A DNA stretch of 64,000 nucleotides from an uncultured Chloroflexia bacterium (GTDB lineage Bacteria; Chloroflexota; Limnocylindria; Limnocylindrales; CSP1-4), in contig CAWHDR010000001.1 in the NCBI GenBank assembly GCA_963828165.1, forward strand, positions 2,240,001-2,304,000, in the 5' to 3' direction. Positions 3,787-27,471 of the stretch are shown piece after piece (positions within the stretch are counted from its first letter, which is position 1; every line of letters starts with the position of its first letter). Below the pieces are notes generated by a model that searched no databases, was not told the DNA's origin, and worked only from the letters and a program-made list of their open reading frames with translations. The position numbers and the translations under genes are program-made.

Positions 3787-5840
<2,054 letters not shown>

Positions 5841-5854
<14 letters not shown>

Positions 5855-7163
5855 CGCGGTGACTCCGCGGCCGGCCGCGACGGTCGTGCTCGTGCGTCCG
5901 GCGGCCGATGGGCTCGAGGTCCTCCTGACGCACCGACCGGCGACGATGGCGTTCGCCCCGGACATGCATGTCTTTCCTGGTGGGCGCGTGGATGCGGCGG
6001 ATGCGGACCCGGCCCTGACGGCGCGGTCGGTCTTGTCGGCAGCGGAGGCGGCAGAGCGGCTCGGCGGCGATCTCGAGCCGACGGCCGCGCTGGCAGCTCA
6101 CGTCGCGGCGATCCGAGAGGCCTTCGAGGAGGTCGGCGTGCTGCTGGCGGATGTCGGGCCCGGCGCGGACCTGGTCGCCGCTCGGTCGCGGCTGCTCGCG
6201 GATCCGGGCGCCTTCCCTTCCGTTGCCAATTCGCTCGACTTGCGGCTCAGGACGGATCTGCTCGTGCCGCTGTCGCGGTGGGTGACGCCGCCCTCGATGC
6301 CGCGGCGGTTCGACGCCCGCTTCTTCGCCGGCGCGTTCCCAGAGGGCGCGGCGGTGACCCTGGTCGGGGACGAGGTCCTGGCGCAGGCCTGGCACCGGCC
6401 GATCGATGCGCTCGAATCGATGGCGGCGGGTGACCTTGGCATGTGGCTGCCGACCTCGACGACGCTCATGCAGCTGGTGCACGCACGCTCGATCGAAGAG
6501 ATCGCGGAGCGTCTGGCGCCTGGTCCGCTCGGCGAGGTCGTGGACGAGGTGGTGGCCACCGATGTCATCCGGATCGAAATGCCGGCCGGTGGCGGGGTCG
6601 CCGGCCAGCCCGTCAACGCCTACCTGGTCGGTCGCGCGGGGTTCGTGCTCGTGGATCCAGGCGACCCCACGGGAGAGGCGCTGGATCGGGCGCTCGAGGT
6701 GGCCGCCGAGCATGGCGGGCGGATCGTGGCGATCGCGCTGACCCACGCCGATCCCGACCACGCGGCCGGCGCCGAGGCCGTCGCAGAACAGCTCGGCATC
6801 CCGGTGATCGTGGGCCCGGGCGGTGGACGGCACCTACCGTACGAGACGCGCGAAGTCCGCGATGGCGAGGTCATCGATGTGGGAGACGTGGCGCTGCGGG
6901 TGGTCGCGACACCAGGCCCACGGCCGGACCACGTGGCGTACGTCGTGGGCAACGGGACTGATGTCATCGCCGGCGATCTCGACGGCGTTCGCGGGGAGCG
7001 GTCGATCCTCGCGCCGCCGGACGACGCCGCGTGGCAGCGGTCCGCGTCAGCACTCCGGTCCGTTGCCCCAGATGCGAGGTGGCTCCCAGGCCACGGTGCC
7101 GTCGGCGACCGACCTATGCCCGATCGACCGGCAATGACGACGCCAGGTTCCGGAGCAGGTTGA
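5841..7163 (+). CDS. NUDIX hydrolase / metallo-beta-lactamase-fold fusion protein
   Basis: PRPAATVVL, FPGGRVD, AAIREAFEEVGV, RWVTP..RRFDARFF (NUDT19-like); C-terminal LVDPG, THADPDHAAG, TPG..DH, PGHG. Confidence 0.8.
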
Positions 7164-7716
7164 GGCCCTCGTCGACCTGTTCGGTCGTCGCATACGGTCC
7201 GGGCATCAGGAAGCACGGGCGGCCGGCCATCGCGACGCCCATCAGCTGACCCCACGGCTCCTCGAGGTCACGTCCCGCGGCGATCGTCGCGGCGCGCTTG
7301 TAGATGAACACGACGGCAGCGGGCCGCCAGAGCGCGATCTTCTGCCAGAGCGGCCCGACGCCCGCGGTGAGGTCGGCATCGCTGGCCTCGTCGTGTGGGC
7401 TCGGGGTCTTGAGCAGGTCGGTGATGCCGTGGCCGGCCGCCAGGAGGGCGTCGTCGGCCGTCTCGACATCCGTCCCCGCCGGCAGGATCTCGGCCAGCAT
7501 CAGCCGGCGCCAGAACGTCCGCCCGAGGCGACCCTGGTGGTAATGCCCGGCCTCGACGCTGCCCGGTGACGGATTGAGCCCGACGAACAGCAGCCGATCG
7601 CGGAGCGGTGGCAGGTCCGCGAGCGTGTCGACCGGGCGGCCGTCGACCAGCGTGGTCGTGACGTGCGGTCCCGGATCGGGTCGGCGGGTGATCGCCTCGA
7701 GCTCGTCCGGCGTCAC
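7114..7716 (-). CDS. Mismatch-specific uracil-DNA glycosylase (Mug/TDG family)
   Basis: LLFVGLNPS, GHYH, FWRRL, GITDL motifs. Confidence 0.75.
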   Translation of the reverse strand: MTPDELEAITRRPDPGPHVTTTLVDGRPVDTLADLPPLRDRLLFVGLNPSPGSVEAGHYHQGRLGRTFWRRLMLAEILPAGTDVETADDALLAAGHGITDLLKTPSPHDEASDADLTAGVGPLWQKIALWRPAAVVFIYKRAATIAAGRDLEEPWGQLMGVAMAGRPCFLMPGPYATTEQVDEGLNLLRNLASSLPVDRA

Positions 7717-8071: not shown

Positions 8072-9760
8072 ATGCTCCTCGTGTTCGGACCCCGCTCCGC
8101 CGACTTCGACTTCGGGCCTGGTCACCCGCTGACGCCGCGGCGTTTCGGACCGGGGATCGATCTGCTGCGCGCCCTGGGGGCAGAACCGGGGATCGCACCG
8201 GAGCCGGCCGCCGACGAGGAGCTGTTGTGGTGCCACACCCAGCGGTACCTGGACGCGGTCAGGCGGTTCTCTGTCGACCCGTTCGGGTTCCCGGAGGCCG
8301 GCATCGGCGAAGGTGGCGACTGCCCGCCGTTCGCGGGCATGCACGAAGCATCGGCGGCGGTGGCCGGTGGGTCGCTACGGGCGGTCGAGGCGATCCTGCG
8401 CGGGGACGTGGAACACGCGCAGCACCCGGGTGGCGGCCTGCATCACGCGATGCCGGCGCGGGCGTCGGGGTTCTGCATCTACGACGACCCGGCCCTCGCG
8501 ATCGCCCGCGCGCGACGAGACGGGCTGCGGGTGATGTACATCGACCTGGACGTGCATCACGGCGATGGGGTGCAGGCCATCCATTGGGACGATCCTGGCG
8601 TGCTCACGGTCTCCTTCCACGAGACGGGTCGGGCTTTGTTCCCTGGGACCGGCGACGTCGACGAGGTGGGGGAGGGCGTCGCGGCTGGGACCAGCGTCAA
8701 CGTGCCCCTTCCACCCGGGACCGGCGAGCGGGCGTGGCTCGCGGCCGTCGAGCTCCTGCTCCCCGAGCTGGCGGCCACGTTCGCGCCCGACCTCATCGTG
8801 TCCCAGCACGGCGCCGATTCGCACGCCTGGGATCCGCTCGCCCACCTGAACGTGACCACGACCGCCCACGGCGCGGCGGCGCGCCTCGTGGACACGTTGG
8901 CGCACCGGCATGCCGGGGGCCGCTGGCTCGCCACGGGCGGTGGCGGATACGACGCGTACCGCGTGGTGCCGCGGACCTGGGCCCTGACCTGGCTTGCCGG
9001 GGCGCATCGCGAGATCCCGGAGGCGACACCCGTCGCCTGGCGCGAGCGATGGGCGACCGAGGCGGCACGGTACGGGCAGGCGCCGCTCCCCGAGGGGTTC
9101 GACGACGAGCCCAATGCCGGGCTCGAGTTCGACGCCGCGCAGGCGGCCGTGGAGGAGGTGGCGAGCGGGGTCGCGGCGCTCGTCCGGCGCGTGCTGGTGC
9201 CGCGGCTCGTGCACGTCGGCCACGACCGCGGATGGTGGGATCCGCTCGCGCCTTCCCACGGGACCATGTCGGGAGCGGGGCCCGTTAGCGGGACGCCGAC
9301 GATCCTCCCCGAGATCGACGCCGCGACCTGGTCGGGCCTGTCGCTGGCGCCAAGGGTCATCGCGCCGGCGGATCCGAGGGCTGCCCACGGACTCGTCCTG
9401 GCTGGCCTCGCCGACGGCGCCCGGGTCACCGTCGCGGTGATCGGACCGCGGGTCGTCGGGCTCGCGATCTCCCGGGTCGATGGCGAGTCCGAAGAGCTCC
9501 TGGCCCTCGGCGTAGAGCCCTCGCATCGTCGTCACGGCCTGGCCGGCAAGCTCCTCGAGGCGCACTCGGCCGCCGATCGCGCGAGCACCGCAGAGGTCGC
9601 CCTGGCCGAGCGCGACGTCGTCGACCCGCTGGATCGTGCGGACCGCGCGTCGATCGCCCGCCGGCTGCTTGAACGGGCCGGCTACCGCGTGGTGTCGGCC
9701 GCCGGGGCGATCCGATCGGTGGATCCATCCGCGATCGTGGCCGGGCGGGGGCCGGCGTGA
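8072..9760 (+). CDS. acuC: AcuC-like Zn-dependent (HDAC family) deacetylase fused to a C-terminal GNAT-like domain
   Basis: GHPLTPRR, GGLHHAMPARASGFCIY, YIDLDVHHGDGVQ, SFHETG, QHGADSH..DPL, GGGGY; C-terminal ELLALGVEPSHRRHGLAGKLL (acetyl-CoA motif A). Confidence 0.85.
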   Translation: MLLVFGPRSADFDFGPGHPLTPRRFGPGIDLLRALGAEPGIAPEPAADEELLWCHTQRYLDAVRRFSVDPFGFPEAGIGEGGDCPPFAGMHEASAAVAGGSLRAVEAILRGDVEHAQHPGGGLHHAMPARASGFCIYDDPALAIARARRDGLRVMYIDLDVHHGDGVQAIHWDDPGVLTVSFHETGRALFPGTGDVDEVGEGVAAGTSVNVPLPPGTGERAWLAAVELLLPELAATFAPDLIVSQHGADSHAWDPLAHLNVTTTAHGAAARLVDTLAHRHAGGRWLATGGGGYDAYRVVPRTWALTWLAGAHREIPEATPVAWRERWATEAARYGQAPLPEGFDDEPNAGLEFDAAQAAVEEVASGVAALVRRVLVPRLVHVGHDRGWWDPLAPSHGTMSGAGPVSGTPTILPEIDAATWSGLSLAPRVIAPADPRAAHGLVLAGLADGARVTVAVIGPRVVGLAISRVDGESEELLALGVEPSHRRHGLAGKLLEAHSAADRASTAEVALAERDVVDPLDRADRASIARRLLERAGYRVVSAAGAIRSVDPSAIVAGRGPA

Positions 9761-10449
9761 CCGGCACCGGCGCACCAGAGGGCTTGCCCTCACGTGACCT
9801 CGTCGATGTACGGCTGGCCGCCGCGATCGAGCTCGGCGGCTGCGCTGTTTGCGCCGTCCGGGCCCGCTCGGAACGCGCGACGCTGGACGCGATCATCGCG
9901 GAGCGCGTGCTCGATATCGGCTTTCGGGAGGGACTCGAGCGCGAACATGGGTTCTGCCGCCGCCATTCGGCCGAGCTGCTCGAAGCCAATCGACAGGCGT
10001 CGGGCAGCCTCGGTTCGTCGATCCTGTTCGGGGCGATCGTCGAACGACGCGCCGCCGCGCTCCAAGCGGCGATCGGCACCCGGGGTCGGAGCCGTCGTCA
10101 GCGGCTCGCCGAAGCCGGTCGACGACCACCGTGCATCGCCTGCGGCCAGGGCGTCTCGGGTGTCGACATCGCGCTCGCCCGGCTGGTCCAGCGGAGCGCG
10201 GACCCGGCCTGGGCCTCGGCCATGCTCGAGATCCCGTTCTGCCTCGACGATCTGACGGCCTTGCTGGCCGCCGCCGGTGACGAGGCGTCGTTCGCCCCGA
10301 TCGCCGCCCATCACCTCTCCCGGCTCGACGACCTGCGTCGCCGGCTCGGTGGCTTCGTGGATCATTCCGCCCAGGACCGCCGACACCTGCTGACGGATGA
10401 GGAACGATCGGCGGCAGACGAGGCCGCGCGGCTGCTCGCGGGCGATTGA
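9757..10449 (+). CDS. DUF6062-like Cys-rich (Zn-binding) protein
   Basis: Duplicated CxxC...FC pattern: CAVC..GFCRRH and CIAC..PFCLDD; overlaps the acuC stop codon. Confidence 0.6.
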   Translation: MTGTGAPEGLPSRDLVDVRLAAAIELGGCAVCAVRARSERATLDAIIAERVLDIGFREGLEREHGFCRRHSAELLEANRQASGSLGSSILFGAIVERRAAALQAAIGTRGRSRRQRLAEAGRRPPCIACGQGVSGVDIALARLVQRSADPAWASAMLEIPFCLDDLTALLAAAGDEASFAPIAAHHLSRLDDLRRRLGGFVDHSAQDRRHLLTDEERSAADEAARLLAGD

Positions 10450-10613
10450 TGCAGTTCGTTCACCGGGGACCAGGCCGACGAGCCGTCGTCCGCCGGAAGA
10501 TCGATGCCGCCTTCGGTCGGGCCGGCAGGCCGGCCCCCCGACGGCCAAGTCAGCCGTTGAACCTTGACCCAGGATGCCGACCCGTAGCCGCGCCGTCGAG
10601 CTATCGGGGCGTG

Positions 10614-10774
10614 ATTTAGCGTGAGTGAACGAATGCACCGGCAAGCCTCTTTGTTGCCGCTGCACGCGTCTCCTCGCGTCATGATCTTCGCTCACGGTGA
10701 ACGCCCGCCGGCGTGACATCTCGGCAGGGACGACCTTATGGCGCATCCCTGGCGAGTGTTCAGTGCCAGTGAAT
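10614..10774. repeat. Array of three degenerate 17-bp palindromes at exact 72-bp period
   Basis: 10614 ATTTAGCGTGAGTGAAC; 10686 CTTCGCTCACGGTGAAC; 10758 GTTCAGTGCCAGTGAAT. Confidence 0.75.
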
Positions 10775-10818
10775 CTCGAAGAGGAAGCCGGAAGCCTCGA
10801 ACCGACTACGGGTGCCAG

Positions 10819-11571
10819 TCACCGACCGAAGGCCACGCCTCGCGGAGGTCGATCGAGCAGCGTCACCACGTCGCCTTCGGCCCTCGCCCATAGGACACCT
10901 GGTCCCGGCCATGGACCATGCCCACAGACCGCCTCAAACACATCCCTGGCGCGGGCGGGATAGAGCGCCTGGAAGGTTTCCGGAAATCGATGGGCCAGAT
11001 CCCGAGTGGTCCGCGTCGACCGAAGAACAAGCAGTCGACTGACCTCCGCGCCGGATGGCGCATTCGACCACAGGGCCGCCGACGGCAGCGACGACGCCTT
11101 GTCCTGTGCCCATCGGAAGTGCTGCTCGAGGCGGCGGATCTCCGAGCTCACCTCTGTTGCCAGGAAGAGCGGCTCGGCGTGATCCCTGAGGACGATGTCG
11201 ATGTAGCCGCGGGCGGGTCGCGTGACCGGGACTTCCACGAATGTTCGCCAGCGAGGTCGGACCGCTCGCAGGATGTGCTCGACGATCTGGCTCTGGATCC
11301 GATCATGGATCCGGGGACCTGTGTTCGGGTATGCCCTCAGCGACAGGTCGGCGCCGAGGACATCGGCGATCCCAACCAGGACCGTCGTGCTCGCCTCCGA
11401 AGAACCTTGTTCGATTCCGCACAGGTGGCCCGGACTGATCCCGACCGATCTCGCCACCGCCGCCTGCGTCAGTGCCGCATCCTCGCGAAGTCGTCGAAAC
11501 TCCCCGCCGATCGACGCTCTGACCTGCCGTGTCCGCGCGCGCCGCCGCCGCTCGTCCTCTCGTGCACTCAA
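10819..11571 (-). CDS. XRE-family HTH protein with C-terminal PD-(D/E)XK restriction-endonuclease-like domain
   Basis: HTH: FRRLREDAALTQAAVARSVGISPGHLCGIEQG. Nuclease-like core: VEVPV..RGYIDIVL..LATEVSS. Probable TTG start at 11571 with GGAG upstream; the ORF track starts at 11604. Confidence 0.75.
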   Translation of the reverse strand: MSAREDERRRRARTRQVRASIGGEFRRLREDAALTQAAVARSVGISPGHLCGIEQGSSEASTTVLVGIADVLGADLSLRAYPNTGPRIHDRIQSQIVEHILRAVRPRWRTFVEVPVTRPARGYIDIVLRDHAEPLFLATEVSSEIRRLEQHFRWAQDKASSLPSAALWSNAPSGAEVSRLLVLRSTRTTRDLAHRFPETFQALYPARARDVFEAVCGHGPWPGPGVLWARAEGDVVTLLDRPPRGVAFGR

Positions 11572-11609
11572 GGCGGAACTCCATCCTGCAAGGCGGAACT
11601 CCATCCTGC
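11569..11609. repeat. Perfect 20-bp tandem duplication CAAGGCGGAACTCCATCCTG x2
   Basis: Copies at 11569-11588 and 11589-11608, covering the putative RBS and start of the XRE gene. Confidence 0.9.
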
Positions 11610-11618
11610 CGGCGGCCG

Positions 11619-11922
11619 ATTTAGGGCCAGTGAACCAAATCTCGCTCTACCGGCGCTTATCACGCCGAGGGACCGACAGATGCAGCGCTGTCGCCACGAC
11701 GTTCACTGGCGGTGAACCCTGACGCGCCAAACTCGGGTGGTTCGGGGCCGAGCGCGGTTTGGGCCCGATCGCGTTCGCTGTCAGTGAATCCCGTCTCGGG
11801 ACGGGCTCACCGATCTGGCATAGCCCCCCGGACGTTCACTGGCGGTGAACCCTGACGCGCCAGGCTCGGGTGGTTCGGGGCAGAGCGCGGTTTGGGCCCG
11901 ATCGCGTTCGCTGTCAGTGAAT
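11619..11922. repeat. Array of five 17-bp palindromes (spacing 82, 72, 61, 72 bp)
   Basis: 11619 ATTTAGGGCCAGTGAAC; 11701 and 11834 GTTCACTGGCGGTGAAC; 11773 and 11906 GTTCGCTGTCAGTGAAT. Confidence 0.85.
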
Positions 11923-11995
11923 CCCGTCTCGGGACGGGCTCACCGATTTGGCCTAGCCGCCCGTCTCGGGACGCGCTCACCGATCTGGCGTAGCC
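11698..11995. repeat. 133-bp tandem direct repeat (2 copies) plus a third partial ~36-bp copy
   Basis: GACGTTCACTGGCGGTGAAC...TAGCC starts at 11698 and 11831 with few mismatches; CCCGTCTCGGGAC.CGCTCACCGATCTGGC.TAGCC recurs at ~11960-11995. Confidence 0.9.
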
Positions 11996-12022
11996 GGCCC
12001 GGCTCGTTGTTGGTGGCACAAA

Positions 12023-12060
12023 TAGAACGGACGATCGAAACGCGCACGCAGGCCTATACT
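12023..12060 (+). promoter_or_regulatory. Possible LexA (GAAC-N4-GTTC type) box and -10 element upstream of lhr
   Basis: TAGAAC-GGAC-GATCGA at 12023-12038 (one mismatch in the core); TATACT at 12055-12060. Confidence 0.4.
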
Positions 12061-12069
12061 CTCGAGTCC

Positions 12070-15000
12070 GTGGCCACGACCCTCGTCGCCGATCCGCTCG
12101 CGCCGTTCTCGCCGGCCGTTCGCGCCTGGTTCGAGGCGAGTTTCGAGGCGCCCACCCAGGCCCAGACGGAGGGATGGGCAGCCATCGCGCGAGGCGAGCA
12201 CACGCTCATCCACGCACCCACGGGGAGCGGCAAGACACTGGCCGCCTTCCTGTACACGCTCGACCGTCTCGCCCAGCATCCGAGCCCGCCGGTCCAGAAA
12301 GGCCAGACCGGCAACGTCCGGGTTCTCTACATCTCGCCGCTCAAGGCTCTGACGTACGACGTGGAGCGCAACCTGCGGGCCCCGCTCACGGGGATCGGCC
12401 TCGCGGCGCAGCGACTCGGCGAAGCACCTCCAAGCATCTCCGTCGCCAGCCGCACCGGCGACACCCCGGCCGAAGACCGCCGCGAGATCGCCCGACGCCC
12501 GCCCGACATCCTCATCACGACCCCGGAGAGCCTGTACCTGCTCCTGACCAGCCAGGCGCGCGAGATCCTCCGTGGCGTCGAACACGTCATCGTCGACGAG
12601 ATCCACGCGATGGCCGGCACGAAACGGGGTGCCCACCTTGCCCTGAGCCTGGAACGGCTTGAGGCGCTCCGTCCCGAGGGCGCAGAGCCGCCACAGCGCA
12701 TCGGCCTGTCGGCCACCCAGCGGCCGCTGGACGCGATCGCCCGCTTCCTCGGTGGCATCGGGCCGGATCGCGAGGTCACGATCGTCGATGCAGGCGCCCG
12801 GAAGCCGCTCGACCTGCAGGTCGTCGTACCGGTCGACGACATGAGCGCCATCGGCGATGTCCTGCCGCAGGAGCAGCAGCCCGGCGGGCCGGCGATCAGT
12901 CCGGACCTGCGCACGAGCATCTGGCCGGCGATCCACCCGCGGATCCTCGAGCTGATCCGCAGCCACAAGAGCACGATCGTGTTCACGAACAGCCGGCGCC
13001 TCAGCGAGCGTCTGGCCCAGCGCCTCAACGAGCTCGCCGGGGAGGAGCTCGTGCGTGCCCACCACGGCAGCATCGCTCGTGAACAGCGGCTCGAGATCGA
13101 GGAGGAGCTGAAGGCCGGCCGCCTCCCGGCCCTCGTCGCCACGAGCTCGAGCCTCGAGCTCGGCATCGACATGGGCGCCGTCGATCTCGTCATCCAGGTC
13201 GAGAGCCCGACGAGCGTGGCCCGTGGCCTCCAGCGGGTCGGTCGGGCTGGTCACCAGGTCGGCGCGCCCAGCAAGGGCGTCATCTTCCCGAAGTACCGCG
13301 GCGACCTGCTCGAGGTCGCGGTGGTCACCAGACGGATGCACGAGGGCGCGATCGAGGCCACGAAGATCCCGCGGAATCCGCTCGATGTCCTCGCTCAGCA
13401 GCTCGTGGCGATGACCGTGATGGACCGCTGGACGGGTGAGGACCTGCTCCGCACCATCACGAGAGCGGCGCCCTACGAGACGCTCACGCGCGATGTCCTC
13501 GACGGTGTCCTTGGCATGCTCGCGGGCGCCTACCCATCGGACGAGTTCGCGGAACTCAAGCCGCGCATGGTGTGGGACCGCGTCACCGACACGATCGAGG
13601 GCCGCCGCGACGCGCGCGTCGTCGCCGTCACGAGCGGCGGCACGATCCCCGATCGCGGCCTCTTTGGCGTGTTCATGGAAGGCGAGGCCGGCACGCCCGG
13701 CCGCCGCGTGGGCGAGCTCGACGAGGAGATGGTCTACGAGCTTCGCGCCGGGATGCACGGTGACGTCATCGTGCTCGGGGCGAGCAGCTGGCGCGTCCTC
13801 GAGATCGGTCATGACCGGGTCACCGTCAGCCCGGCTCCCGGCGTCCCCGGCAAGCTGCCGTTCTGGAAGGGCGACGCCGTGGGCCGGCCGATCGAATTGG
13901 GCCGGGCGCTCGGGGCGTTCGTCGGCGAGATGGAGACCAACCTTGGGCGTGGCGCCAAGGGCCGGCGCGATGCCACCAAGCGACTGCGGGAGCATCACGA
14001 CCTCGACGAACGGGCTGCCGAGAACCTTGTCGCCTACCTGGAGGACGAGCGAGAGGCCACGGGCGCCCTCCCCACGGACAAGCGAGTGGTGGTGGAGCGG
14101 TTCCGCGACGAGCTGGGCGACTGGCGGCTGACGCTCCTGACGCCGTTCGGTGGGCGAGTCCATGCGCCGTGGTCCCTGGCCATCGAGTCCCGTCTCCAGG
14201 AACGGCTCGGGATGGAGGTCCAGACCATCTGGTCCGACGACGGGATCGCGATCCGGATGCCGGAAGGTGAGGCCAGCCTCGACGGGGTCGAGGAGCTGCT
14301 GTTCCCCGCCGCGGAGGATGTCGAGGACCTCGTGGTCGGGCAGGTCGCCAACTCCGCGCTCTTCGCGAGCCGCTTCCGGGAGAACGCGGCCCGGGCGCTC
14401 CTCCTGCCGCGGCGCCGGCCCGGTACCCGGACGCCGCTCTGGCAGCAGCGCCAGCGCGCGGCAGACCTGCTGGCCGTCGCCAGCCGTTATGGCAGCTTCC
14501 CGATCCTGGTCGAGACGTACCGCGAGTGCCTGTCCGACGTGTTCGACCTCGACGCGCTGCGCGAGATCCTCGGTGGCATCTCGAGCCGTGAGATCGCCGT
14601 GCACGGTGTCGAGACGCCGAAGGCGAGCCCGTTCGCGAGCAGCCTGCTGTTCGACTACGTGGCGGCCTACATGTACGACGGCGACACGCCATTGGCCGAG
14701 CGGCGGGCCGGCGCCCTCACCCTGGACCGCGACTTGCTGCGTGAGCTGCTCGGCCAGGAGGAGCTCCGGGAGCTGCTCGACCCCGATGCCCTCGGCGACC
14801 TCGAGCTGTCGCTGCAGGCGCTCGTCGAGGACCGGGCCGCCACGACGCTCGACCAGGTCCACGACCTGCTGCGCCGCCTGGGGGACCTGTCCGCCGACGA
14901 AGTGAGTGCCCGGACCGCGGGCGGTGCCCCCGTCGCCGTTCCGTGGCTGGCGGAGCTGGAAGCGGCCCGCCGTGCTGTCCGTGTCCGCATCGCGGGCGAC

Positions 15001-16633
15001 GAGCGCTGGATCGCGATCGAAGATGTCGCTCGCTACCGAGACGGTGTGGGCGTCACGGCGCCGGTCGGGGTGCCGGCCGCGTTCCTGGGTCCGGCGGCAG
15101 GCGCGCTCGATGGGCTGCTGGCGCGCTTTGCGCGGACCCACGGCCCGTTCCTGACCCCCGACCCGGCGCGCCGCTGGGGCTTGCCTGCCGGTATCGTCGG
15201 CGACGCCCTGGAGCGCCTCCTGGCCAACGGTTCGCTGCTCCTCGGTGAGTTTCGGCCGGGTGGAGCGGAACGGGAGTGGTGCGATCCCGGATGTCCTGCG
15301 ATTGCTGCGCCGCCGCTCCCTCGCGCGCCTGCGACGCGAGGTGGAGCCGGTCGATCCGGCCGCGCTGGGCCGCTTCCTCCCGGCGTGGCATGGCGTGGCG
15401 CCGGTCGGCGGCCCGGGCGCGGACGCATCGCCATTCCGCGGTTCCGCTGCGCTCGAGCGCCTCGCGGAGGTCGTCGATCAGCTCGCCGGCGTTGCCATCC
15501 CGGCGTCCGTGCTGGAACGCGACGTGCTGCCGGCCCGCGTGCCCGGCTACCAGCCGCGTCTGCTCGACGAGCTCGGCGCGATGGGCGAGGTCGGCTGGGT
15601 GGGGCGGGGGAGCCTCGGCCGCGACGACGGTCGGATCGCGCTGTTCCGCCCCGGTCGCGATGCTCTGCGTCCGATCACGCCGCCGGATGGCGCGGAGCGG
15701 CCGGAGAGCGAGCGCCACGATCTGATCCGCGAGCACCTCGGCCGCCGGGGCGCGAGCTTCTATCGCGAGATCCATGCCGCGGCCGGCGGCGGCTCGGACC
15801 GGGCGATGCTCGATGCGCTGTGGGACCTCGTCTGGGTCGGCGAAGTCACGAACGACACGTTCGCGCCGCTCCGGGCCCTACGCTGGAAGCGCCCCACCGG
15901 CGGCAACGGGGCGCGGCCGCGACCGGGTCGCCTGACCGCGCTCGGTCCACCCGAGGCGGCGGGACGATGGTCGCTCGTGGAACCCGCGACGGAGCTGACT
16001 GCGACGGAACGCCTCCATGCGCAGGCCCTCGCGTTACTGGAACGCTATGGCGTGCTGACCCGCGAGGCCGTCGCCAGTGAAGGAGTCGATGGCGGGTTCG
16101 CCGGCGTCTACCCCGTCCTCCGCGCGCTCGAGGACGCCGGGCGGATCCGGCGGGGCTACTTCGTCGACGGCCTCGGTGCCGCGCAGTTCGCACTGGCGGG
16201 CGCGCTCGATCGACTGCGGGCCGTCCGCGAACCGGCCGACCGTCCGGCGGAGGGGTCGGTCCACCTGCTGGCCGCTGCCGACCCGGCGAACGCGTACGGT
16301 GCGGCCCTGCCGTGGCCCCGCCGGGGCGAGGCCGACCGGCGCCCCCTCCAGCGGGCGGCCGGAGCCTACGTCGTCCTTGTGGACGGAGTCGCGGCGCTGT
16401 ACCTGGAGCGCGGTGGCTCCACGCTGCAGACCCTGGCCCCCGCCGACGATCCGGCCGTCGCCGATGCTGCGATCCGCGGCCTCGGCGCGCTCGTCGGGAC
16501 GGGCCGGGCGCGCGAGCTCGTGATCCGCAAGGTCGACGGCCTGCCCGTCGCCGACGCTCCGTTCCGCGACCAGTTGCTCGCATCGGGCTTCAGCGCCGGC
16601 TACCGCGGCCTGGTCATGCGCGGCGCCCGATAA
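12070..16633 (+). CDS. lhr: Lhr-family ATP-dependent DEAD/DEAH-box helicase (long form); frameshift near 15287
   Basis: APTGSGKT, ITTPESL, VDEIH, GLSAT, HHGS, LELGIDMG, QRVGRAGH; C-terminal portion (DVLRLLRRRSLARLR, RRGYFVDGLGAAQFA, DPANAYG) is in the next frame. Confidence 0.9.
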
Positions 16634-27144: not shown

Positions 27145-27240
27145 TCAGGCTCGCCCCATGTTCGCCTGCACCGTGCGGATGATGAAGACGATCTCCAGGG
27201 CGGCGATCACGATCAGCGCGATGCCGACGAACATCTCCAC
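27145..27240 (-). CDS. Small (31 aa) single-TM membrane protein
   Basis: GTG start with GGAGG upstream; reads MEMFVGIALIVIAALEIVFIIRTVQANMGRA; too short for the ORF track. Confidence 0.55.
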   Translation of the reverse strand: MEMFVGIALIVIAALEIVFIIRTVQANMGRA

Positions 27241-27320: not shown

Positions 27321-27471
27321 ATTCGCTGACAGTGAACGTCGGCGCGCCGAAGCCTTTCTGGAGGTTCTGGTTGCCGCCCCTGCTGTCGGCGCATTCATCG
27401 GCGCTGAAGCCCTTGGACCCAGGTCGCCCTCGAAGGCAGGCATAGATGGAACGGATTCACCGACAGCGAAG
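27321..27471. repeat. Orphan array of three 17-bp palindromes (spacing 72, 62 bp), same family as 10.6-11.9 kb
   Basis: 27321 ATTCGCTGACAGTGAAC; 27393 ATTCATCGGCGCTGAAG; 27455 ATTCACCGACAGCGAAG. Confidence 0.75.

Follow-up and report, generated by a model that had tools for sequence, protein, structure and literature searches.

The window analysed here is a 64,000-nucleotide stretch of DNA from an uncultured Chloroflexia bacterium (assembly GCA_963828165.1, contig CAWHDR010000001.1, positions 2,240,001-2,304,000 of the forward strand). It contains a gene for a 250-amino-acid protein with an XRE-type helix-turn-helix (HTH) and a nuclease-fold domain, and this gene is flanked on both sides by arrays of a short palindrome placed at whole turns of the DNA helix (Table 1). 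This design is found again in dozens of related uncultured bacteria of soil and water, which differ in their site sequences, and it looks like an undescribed DNA-wrapping cassette. In the parts of the literature brought up by a search, no account of the protein family or of the phased-array architecture was found. A preliminary description of the locus had reported the gene, eight 17-bp palindromes, their spacings and the neighbouring genes, all of which were recovered; two of the palindromes proved to be half-sites, and its mostly unique spacers were not confirmed upstream of the gene.

All eight 17-mers lie at the reported coordinates and spacings, and six of them are palindromes. The sites at 10614 and 11619 keep only the right half, AGTGAAC; they have four and three mismatches to the pattern TTCRCTGNCAGTGAA, respectively, and hence the former is missed by a scan allowing up to three mismatches. 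Such a scan gave 21 strand-matches in the window, as against a mean of 3.69 and a maximum of 14 in shuffled sequences (0/100 reached 21), and seven of the 11 matched positions adjoin the gene. The consensus of the sites here is CG-TTCRCT-N3-AGYGAA-CG, a palindrome of 15-19 bp. The downstream array is placed in a tail-to-tail gap, between the stop of a DUF6062 gene at 10449 and that of the gene under study at 10819, and the weak upstream site (11619-11635) is about 56 bp ahead of the start codon. The two degenerate sites also form 21-nt direct repeats, GATTTAG...AGTGAAC (10613-10633 and 11618-11638), which are 81% identical, lie 1005 bp apart and bracket the gene; they may be due to chance, or be a trace of cassette building or insertion.

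In the upstream array, two operators were doubled by a 133-bp tandem duplication, and therefore the sites at 11834 and 11906 are recent copies of those at 11701 and 11773. The alternate spacers of this array are 0.94 identical, matching the duplication, and the earlier statement that the sequence between the sites is mostly unique is wrong there. A unit of 36-37 nt, with a GC-rich inverted repeat CCCGTC..GACGGG inside, follows the TTCGCT-type operators at 11790-11825, 11923-11958 and 11960-11995.

The start of the protein was set at the TTG codon at 11571 because its homologues are almost all 250 amino acids long, and the gene limits given previously agree with the homologue family. The protein consists of an Arg-rich N-terminal helix, a ClgR-like XRE HTH, a linker modelled with low confidence (residues 89-100 in the numbering of the 261-amino-acid open reading frame, ORF) and an extra C-terminal domain of about 150 amino acids. 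The XRE assignment was borne out by Pfam, with HTH_31 at 46.1 bits (cut-off 27, E 6e-12) and HTH_3 at 31.9 bits (cut-off 23). Among solved structures, ClgR is closest to the HTH (PDB codes: 3f51, E 5e-12; 5woq, E 9e-12). The HTH also matches the PADLOC model ‘HTH_VI’ (E 2e-7), and the fold and sequence matches include C.AhdI, C.BclI and C.Esp1396I.

Since a fold search with the whole protein returned HTH matches only, the C-terminal domain was modelled and searched alone. It was modelled as an alpha/beta domain with a predicted local distance difference test (pLDDT) of 94, and nearly all of its best 50 matches in the PDB are PD-(D/E)XK nucleases. The best ones are NucS/EndoMS (PDB code: 2vld, E 4e-3, probability 0.99), the R2 endonuclease domain, McrC, SduA and Bax1, and NucC and Can2/Card1 are further matches; all are weak, with template-modelling (TM) scores of 0.3-0.4 (best about 0.38) and none at E ≤0.001. 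At the sequence level the domain is without relatives in the PDB and is not covered by any Pfam, NCBIfam or PADLOC model, and it lacks the Lys of the catalytic D...(D/E)-x-K motif. In 28 aligned members E124, D136, E151, S154, R158, E160, Q161, W165 and K169 are invariant (numbering of the 261-amino-acid ORF), whereas position 153, that of the canonical Lys, is occupied by S, Q, H, N or E. The nuclease fold with a lost Lys that had been proposed from the window is thus supported, and the E/D/E triad is kept in all aligned members.

A search against 1.84 billion representative proteins returned 323 clusters at E ≤0.001; the best 150 of these are mostly about 250 amino acids long, with the C-terminal domain in the same place. 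A scan of species-representative genomes gave 127 coding stretches, from which 79 loci in 71 metagenome-assembled genomes (MAGs) were kept. All but two of these loci (77/79) are labelled Chloroflexota, including 20 Candidatus Limnocylindrales. They were collected by the presence of the gene and, with the window, make up the 80 loci considered below. The gene was placed in each locus by tblastn, as longest-ORF and GC-phase calling gave wrong frames in DNA of 70% GC. For counting sites, the 600 bp on either side of the gene were scanned for 27 half-site types, a library that replaced a de novo finder swamped by GC-rich pseudo-palindromes.

The flanks of the homologues are enriched in palindromes, with at least three sites of one type in 47 of the 80 loci and at least two in 62. 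In equal-sized windows displaced by 2, 3 and 4 kb, at least three sites were seen in 1/61, 1/60 and 1/57, respectively, as compared with 41/69 true full-length flanks. The motif type of the window occurs six times in its own flanks; in the 774,488 bp that belong to no flank of any locus, it was met four times. The format of the palindrome (6-N3-6) is the same in the homologous loci and the half-site differs between them: TTCACY in the closest relatives, and TTGACC, TTGGCC, CTGACY, ATCSCT, GGGCCT, GCGACT, TGGACT and others elsewhere. Positions 5 and 6 of the half-site (C, Y) and the mirrored R and G are nearly constant, so that the differences sit in the outer four positions. The proximal site mostly begins 40-90 bp ahead of the start codon. 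The gene is flanked by arrays on either side in the window, as it is in about a third of the confident loci; in many loci the arrays are confined to one side. Extra arrays of a locus's own palindrome, 1-4 kb from the gene and with spacings of 52-73 or 134 bp, were seen in L008 (2278-2481 and 7702-7917), L060 (1758-2010) and L072 (7789-7937); that of L060 lies directly upstream of lhr, and one of those in L008 upstream of an extracytoplasmic function (ECF) sigma-factor gene.

The preliminary description had proposed that the sites lie on one face of the helix, for which the window alone holds few independent spacings; the homologous loci confirm it overwhelmingly. In 94 neighbour spacings from 36 confident loci, the Rayleigh statistic peaks at 10.35 bp with R 0.84, and the maximum of the null was 0.34 in 2000 random-spacing simulations. 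The value is 0.86 without the TTCAC-type loci (73 spacings, 30 loci) and again 0.86 with one spacing per locus (n=36). The spacings fall into clusters (41-43, 50-53, 61-63, 71-73, 82-85, 92-96, 103-104 and so on up to 175 bp), of which six and seven turns are the commonest, and 95% are no more than 2 bp off n x 10.4. Neighbouring spacers have a median identity of only 0.37, with 5 of 56 pairs reaching 0.7, and therefore the phasing is not merely a result of tandem duplication.

A second signal lies in the spacers themselves. From a level of about 20%, the A/T content climbs to about 60% at distances of 10-12 and 21 bp from the nearest dyad and to about 40% at 30-33 and 40 bp, so that it peaks once per helical turn, in register with the dyads of the sites. 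The amplitude of this periodicity is 0.074 in 122 spacers from 59 loci, the maximum of the null being 0.020, and none of 1000 shuffles reached it. Such A/T periodicity in DNA of 70% GC favours bending in one direction, through anisotropic flexibility of the DNA. Judging from the sequence, the phased A/T peaks of the arrays would therefore make them prone to bend one way.

The palindrome changes along with the protein across loci, which agrees with the assignment of the sites to the encoded protein. The mutual information between recognition helix and half-site peaks at helix positions 2, 3, 7 and 8 (z 9.2, 7.4, 6.7 and 7.9, respectively). All 25 loci with Asp at helix position 2 have G at half-site position 3; with other residues, C is found in 12 and G in 10. 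In MAGs with two copies of the gene and at least two sites per copy, the half-sites of the copies differ in 5/5. The association between helix and half-site is strong in raw counts and correct in direction, but it is not significant once relatedness is allowed for; the covariation suggested at the outset is thus seen in the counts and falls short of phylogeny-aware significance.

Table 1. Positions of the gene, the palindrome arrays and the repeats in the 64,000-nucleotide window.
Feature	Position	Strand	Basis	Remarks
Gene, 250-amino-acid protein	10819-11571	-	ORF list, homologue lengths, tblastn	TTG start
Downstream array	10614-10630 (half-site only), 10686-10702, 10758-10774	.	sequence inspection	spacing 72/72
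Upstream array	11619-11635 (weak), 11701-11717, 11773-11789, 11834-11850, 11906-11922	.	sequence inspection	spacing 82/72/61/72
Exact 20-bp tandem duplication	11569-11609	.		covers ribosome-binding and start region; creates in-frame upstream ATG at 11604
133-bp tandem duplication	11698-11963	.		2.0 copies, 95% matches
37-bp repeat	11923-12006	.		2.2 copies; further copy 11790-11825
Conserved lhr promoter region, outside the cassette	12023-12069	+	alignment of 32 lhr upstream regions	
Orphan array, same palindrome	27322-27336, 27394-27408 (weak), 27456-27470	.	TTCRCTGNCAGTGAA pattern scan	spacing 72/62

The housekeeping neighbours named earlier (histone-deacetylase/GNAT, DUF6062 and Lhr) were confirmed by their Pfam domains. 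In the homologous loci, lhr is divergently adjacent in 29/80, at a distance of 194-744 bp, and there is no lhr within the examined stretch in 47/80. The gene recurs in a few other slots: one ahead of aconitase, one next to dxs, NAD kinase and FtsJ, one in the gap from fdhD to a NuoF-like gene, one next to EamA, PD40 and an ECF sigma factor and, for one paralogue, one after uvrA; a PEP-utilising enzyme is also among the neighbours. Locus L026 has two gene copies (5038-5796 and 8086-8805) flanking a VanW/PG_binding_4 gene, and in L076 the same VanW gene lies between lhr and a single gene copy. In long-read MAG contigs of L063, L076 and L078 the gene was matched in two frames; these are apparent frameshifts, and assembly errors are possible. 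A gene for a glycosylase of the uracil-DNA glycosylase (UDG) superfamily (7114-7716) stands two genes off in the window and is syntenic with the deacetylase/DUF6062 block in many relatives.

Comparison of the window with its relatives showed that the cassette turns over beside nearly unchanged genes. Lhr is 98% identical to that of L078 and 97% identical to that of L006, while the encoded proteins are 53% and 54% identical, respectively, and both relatives have an ATCSCT palindrome instead of TTCACT. In L001, where Lhr is 95% and the encoded protein 83% identical, the motif type is the same. Because protein and palindrome differ together beside Lhr of 97-98% identity, the gene and its arrays behave as one replaceable unit. 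The DNA similarity to L078 (92.6% over 5.7 kb) ends at 12020 in the window, about 50 bp ahead of the start of lhr, and the 37-bp repeat region is the lhr-side end of the variable cassette. In the protein tree, the lhr-slot copies are spread over at least three distinct clades with good support. Gene and sites thus evolve and get replaced together, and their specificity is diversifying.

Such replacement could be explained by a selfish or mobile cassette. The HTH-nuclease would then be active on its own palindromes, either as a site-specific nuclease or as a recombination factor, and would drive replacement or spread in a homing-like or transposon-end-like way, the arrays being multi-site ends. 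The separate clades of lhr-slot copies and the end of similarity ahead of lhr would fit this, as would the different protein and palindrome beside near-identical Lhr. The GC content at third codon positions (GC3) is also low in the gene: 0.73, as compared with 0.83 in lhr, 0.81 in the DUF6062 gene, 0.88 in the deacetylase gene and a mean of 0.82 in the homologue family. The invariant E/D/E triad, the fold matches to the R2 retrotransposon endonuclease domain and McrC, the two-sided arrays of the window and a third of the confident loci, and the direct repeat around the gene point the same way. However, the canonical catalytic Lys is absent from every aligned member, the copies are confined to a few recurrent chromosomal slots, many loci have one-sided arrays, and the phage and plasmid collections hold no match to the protein. 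Flanking ORFs of both strands were sent to Pfam (186 of 246, a batch of 60 from L061-L079 being left out), and among these 186 no transposase or integrase family was found; target-site duplications and terminal inverted repeats were not seen either. A selfish element of this kind is considered unlikely. A transposon or insertion sequence was rejected on the same scan, the 21-nt direct repeat being the only repeat that brackets the gene. The earlier proposal that a selfish or regulatory module had been placed among housekeeping genes agrees with the replacement of the cassette and with the lack of mobility genes among the neighbours examined, but active mobility is not supported.

The position beside lhr suggests another explanation, in which the protein would repress or activate neighbouring repair genes in response to damage, namely lhr here and uvrA and others at other slots. 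The nuclease-like domain would sense DNA ends or single strands, and the arrays would give a switch-like response. The frequency of divergent lhr, arrays within 63-160 bp of its start in several loci, and the paralogue that follows uvrA would agree with this, and ClgR, the nearest relative of the HTH, has been tied to DNA-damage genes in mycobacteria (PMC5656591). The promoter of lhr itself argues against it. In the window it consists of a palindromic box TAGAAC-N4-GATCGAAA (12023-12040) and TATACT (12055-12060) ahead of a GTG at 12070. The box TAGAAC-N4-GWTCGAAA, with TATACT about 14 nt on and GTG about 10 nt further, is kept in the window and at 28 further loci that adjoin lhr, under all cassette types. 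Since this box is conserved whichever cassette lies beside it, the cassette palindromes, to which it is unrelated, are not the core operator of lhr. Besides, nearly three-fifths of the loci lack lhr in the stretch and have unrelated housekeeping neighbours such as aconitase, dxs, fdhD, EamA or the PEP-utilising enzyme, and one would hardly expect a conserved target to put up with a switch in operator specificity when the genomes are nearly identical. Regulation of the repair genes is rather improbable as the function of the cassette.

The lhr promoter has a near-leaderless layout, and its box presumably resembles the LexA boxes of Gram-positive bacteria (GAAC-N4-GTTC). If it is a LexA box, lhr would be under SOS control in this lineage. 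The lhr gene itself (12070-16633) is read in two frames, with DEAD, Helicase_C, WH_Lhr, DEAD_assoc and WH2_Lhr domains in 12070-15141 and WH3_Lhr and WH4_Lhr in 15245-16630; the change of frame near 15141-15245 is a frameshift or an assembly error.

The palindromes might also serve another factor, such as a short ClgR or some other regulator, or act as RNA, with hairpin transcripts processed in a CRISPR-like way. They do resemble the ClgR box, and palindromes with unique spacers of 45-57 bp are superficially like CRISPR repeats. A conserved separate factor, however, would leave unexplained why the palindrome changes with the adjacent protein. As for RNA, no Rfam family matches 10300-12300, and the mismatches between the arms are without wobble bias (70 G-T, 55 A-C and 130 other among 255 non-Watson-Crick pairs), so that the processed array transcripts envisaged before find no support; the same holds for array-based sensing. 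Both versions of this explanation are highly improbable. A CRISPR array as such was ruled out, as the sites are degenerate palindromes of 15-19 bp, and not near-identical repeats of at least 23 bp, spaced by 61-82 bp in steps of whole helical turns instead of a constant distance, and no cas genes were seen among the neighbouring ORFs scanned. A repetitive extragenic palindromic (REP) array was considered and rejected too, and the initial judgement that the arrays belong to neither class was borne out. A type II toxin-antitoxin pair was also rejected, the gene standing alone between convergent and divergent housekeeping neighbours with no small toxin gene adjacent. The same applies to a CI-type phage immunity repressor: there are no phage genes nearby, no peptidase S24 match of the protein in Pfam and no tblastn match in 50,697 phage records.

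The hypervariable locus beside conserved genes brings to mind a defence or incompatibility module, in which the nuclease-fold protein would be stored and silenced on its own arrays and act on DNA entering the cell with the same sites or titrating them. Diversifying specificity at a variable hotspot would be explained in this way, and the specificity types do differ between paralogues of one genome. SduA, NucC, Can2/Card1 and McrC are among the fold matches, and the HTH matches ‘HTH_VI’ of PADLOC. On the other hand, the C-terminal domain matches no PADLOC model and lacks the Lys, and no other defence genes were seen among the neighbouring ORFs scanned. Helically phased arrays with bending signals are not known from defence systems. 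Overall, a module of this type is quite improbable.

Taken together, the locus is probably a self-contained DNA-binding cassette, in which one protein and arrays of its own operators form a cooperative, autoregulatory complex on bent or wrapped DNA. The likely scheme is as follows. From homology and covariation, dimers of the protein would read the palindromes of 15-19 bp through the ClgR-like HTH. The sites being 4-8 whole turns apart, mostly 62 or 72 bp, the dimers would face one side; with the whole-turn spacing and the A/T positions in register, all of them would sit on one side of DNA that bends one way. The restriction-endonuclease-fold C-terminal domains may then join neighbouring dimers, so that the array would be bent or wrapped into one cooperative nucleoprotein particle. 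This particle would cover the promoter of the gene, so that the protein represses itself, and might link the arrays on either side of the gene. The few arrays elsewhere would be extra targets. The orphan array of the window (27322-27470) is 15 kb from the gene, which shows that the palindrome is not private to the gene locus, and it may be a second target of the encoded protein. The next ORF, 82 bp downstream of this array, has 31 codons, is very hydrophobic (27145-27240, - strand) and stands between two cyanophycin-synthetase-like genes.

Several observations weigh against this cassette model. With the library of 27 half-sites, 18/80 loci have fewer than two sites, some of them having short flanks. 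The overlap of the particle with the promoter is an assumption, as a consensus scan of 10450-12100, downstream array included, found no sigma-70-like promoter. The phylogeny-aware covariation test is underpowered, with eight independent pairs, about four of which changed the same way, none the opposite way and about four not at all (median p 0.125). The downstream array is enclosed by two gene ends and thus has no obvious target of repression. The invariant E/D/E triad and K169 in a supposedly structural domain hint at catalysis or metal binding, which a pure repressor would not need. Finally, the replacement of cassettes beside nearly identical Lhr is not explained by simple autoregulation. 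The acidic triad, the downstream array and the turnover beside Lhr fit a plain autorepressor poorly, and therefore the selfish, incompatibility and defence readings stay in play. The interpretation first offered is accordingly supported in its HTH, fold, phasing and cognate sites, and not in its mobility, sensing or array transcripts.

Besides the PD-(D/E)XK proteins matched by the C-terminal domain, four known systems are close to the proposed cassette in one respect or another. ClgR is known from single boxes per promoter and is not known to use phased arrays, and its chains of about 117-120 residues have no nuclease-fold domain, whereas the protein here has 250 amino acids and scores 21.6 bits with NCBIfam NF041677, far below the cut-off of 170 for an equivalog match. 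The published ClgR box, WNNWMGCYNNNRGCGWWS (PMC2905415), has the same 6-N3-6 format and the same CY-N3-RG core as the cassette sites; these, however, read TTCRCT..AGYGAA in the window and have other half-sites in the relatives. In phage 186, CI dimers are reported to join via their C-terminal domains into a wheel wrapping the operator DNA and to use flanking sites (10.1101/2021.10.29.466366). Thus 186 CI is the nearest functional precedent, and ClgR is the nearest relative of the reading head. The cassette assembly would share with 186 CI and lambda CI the HTH dimers joined by C-terminal domains, the wrapping or looping of DNA and the operator sets on both sides of the controlled region. It differs in the unrelated fold of the C-terminal domain, in sites 4-8 turns apart with phased A/T, in the absence of a prophage here, and in its many paralogous chromosomal copies.

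The controller (C) proteins of restriction-modification systems are likewise XRE-type HTH proteins on palindromic operator pairs, associated with a PD-(D/E)XK fold, and their specificity groups differ between systems. Here, in contrast, a single chain carries both the HTH and the nuclease fold, without the catalytic Lys, and the neighbouring ORFs scanned include no methyltransferase gene. Plasmid centromeres of the sopC and parC types are arrays of short repeats in helical register that bind many copies of one small protein, often around its promoter. Their proteins, however, have different folds (ParB or ribbon-helix-helix), and the cassette is chromosomal, occupies several slots and has no partition NTPase gene among the ORFs scanned.

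It is also possible, though this is put forward tentatively, that the loci represent an undescribed class of chromatin-like cassettes. Dimers placed every 6-7 turns on DNA with A/T signals at 10.35 bp would form a sequence-addressed, nucleosome-like particle on either flank of the gene that encodes them, with specificities that diversify and are exchanged between genomes and slots. This would imply selection of the selfish, incompatibility or defence type, possibly via a residual nuclease activity of the C-terminal domain, and not gene regulation of the ordinary kind. What selects for the turnover is the question raised by whole cassettes being replaced next to housekeeping genes that hardly differ.

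The C-terminal domain defines an uncharacterised family, without a Pfam, NCBIfam or PADLOC model, from an abundant uncultured lineage of Chloroflexota. If the proposed cassette is correct, a natural and very regular DNA architecture would be laid down in sequence, in which operators locked to the helical repeat and nucleosome-like bending signals in the spacers come with a matching protein and dozens of specificity variants. It would provide ready-made orthogonal pairs of HTH and operator, as well as a tractable system for the assembly of cooperative wrapping complexes and the evolution of new specificities.

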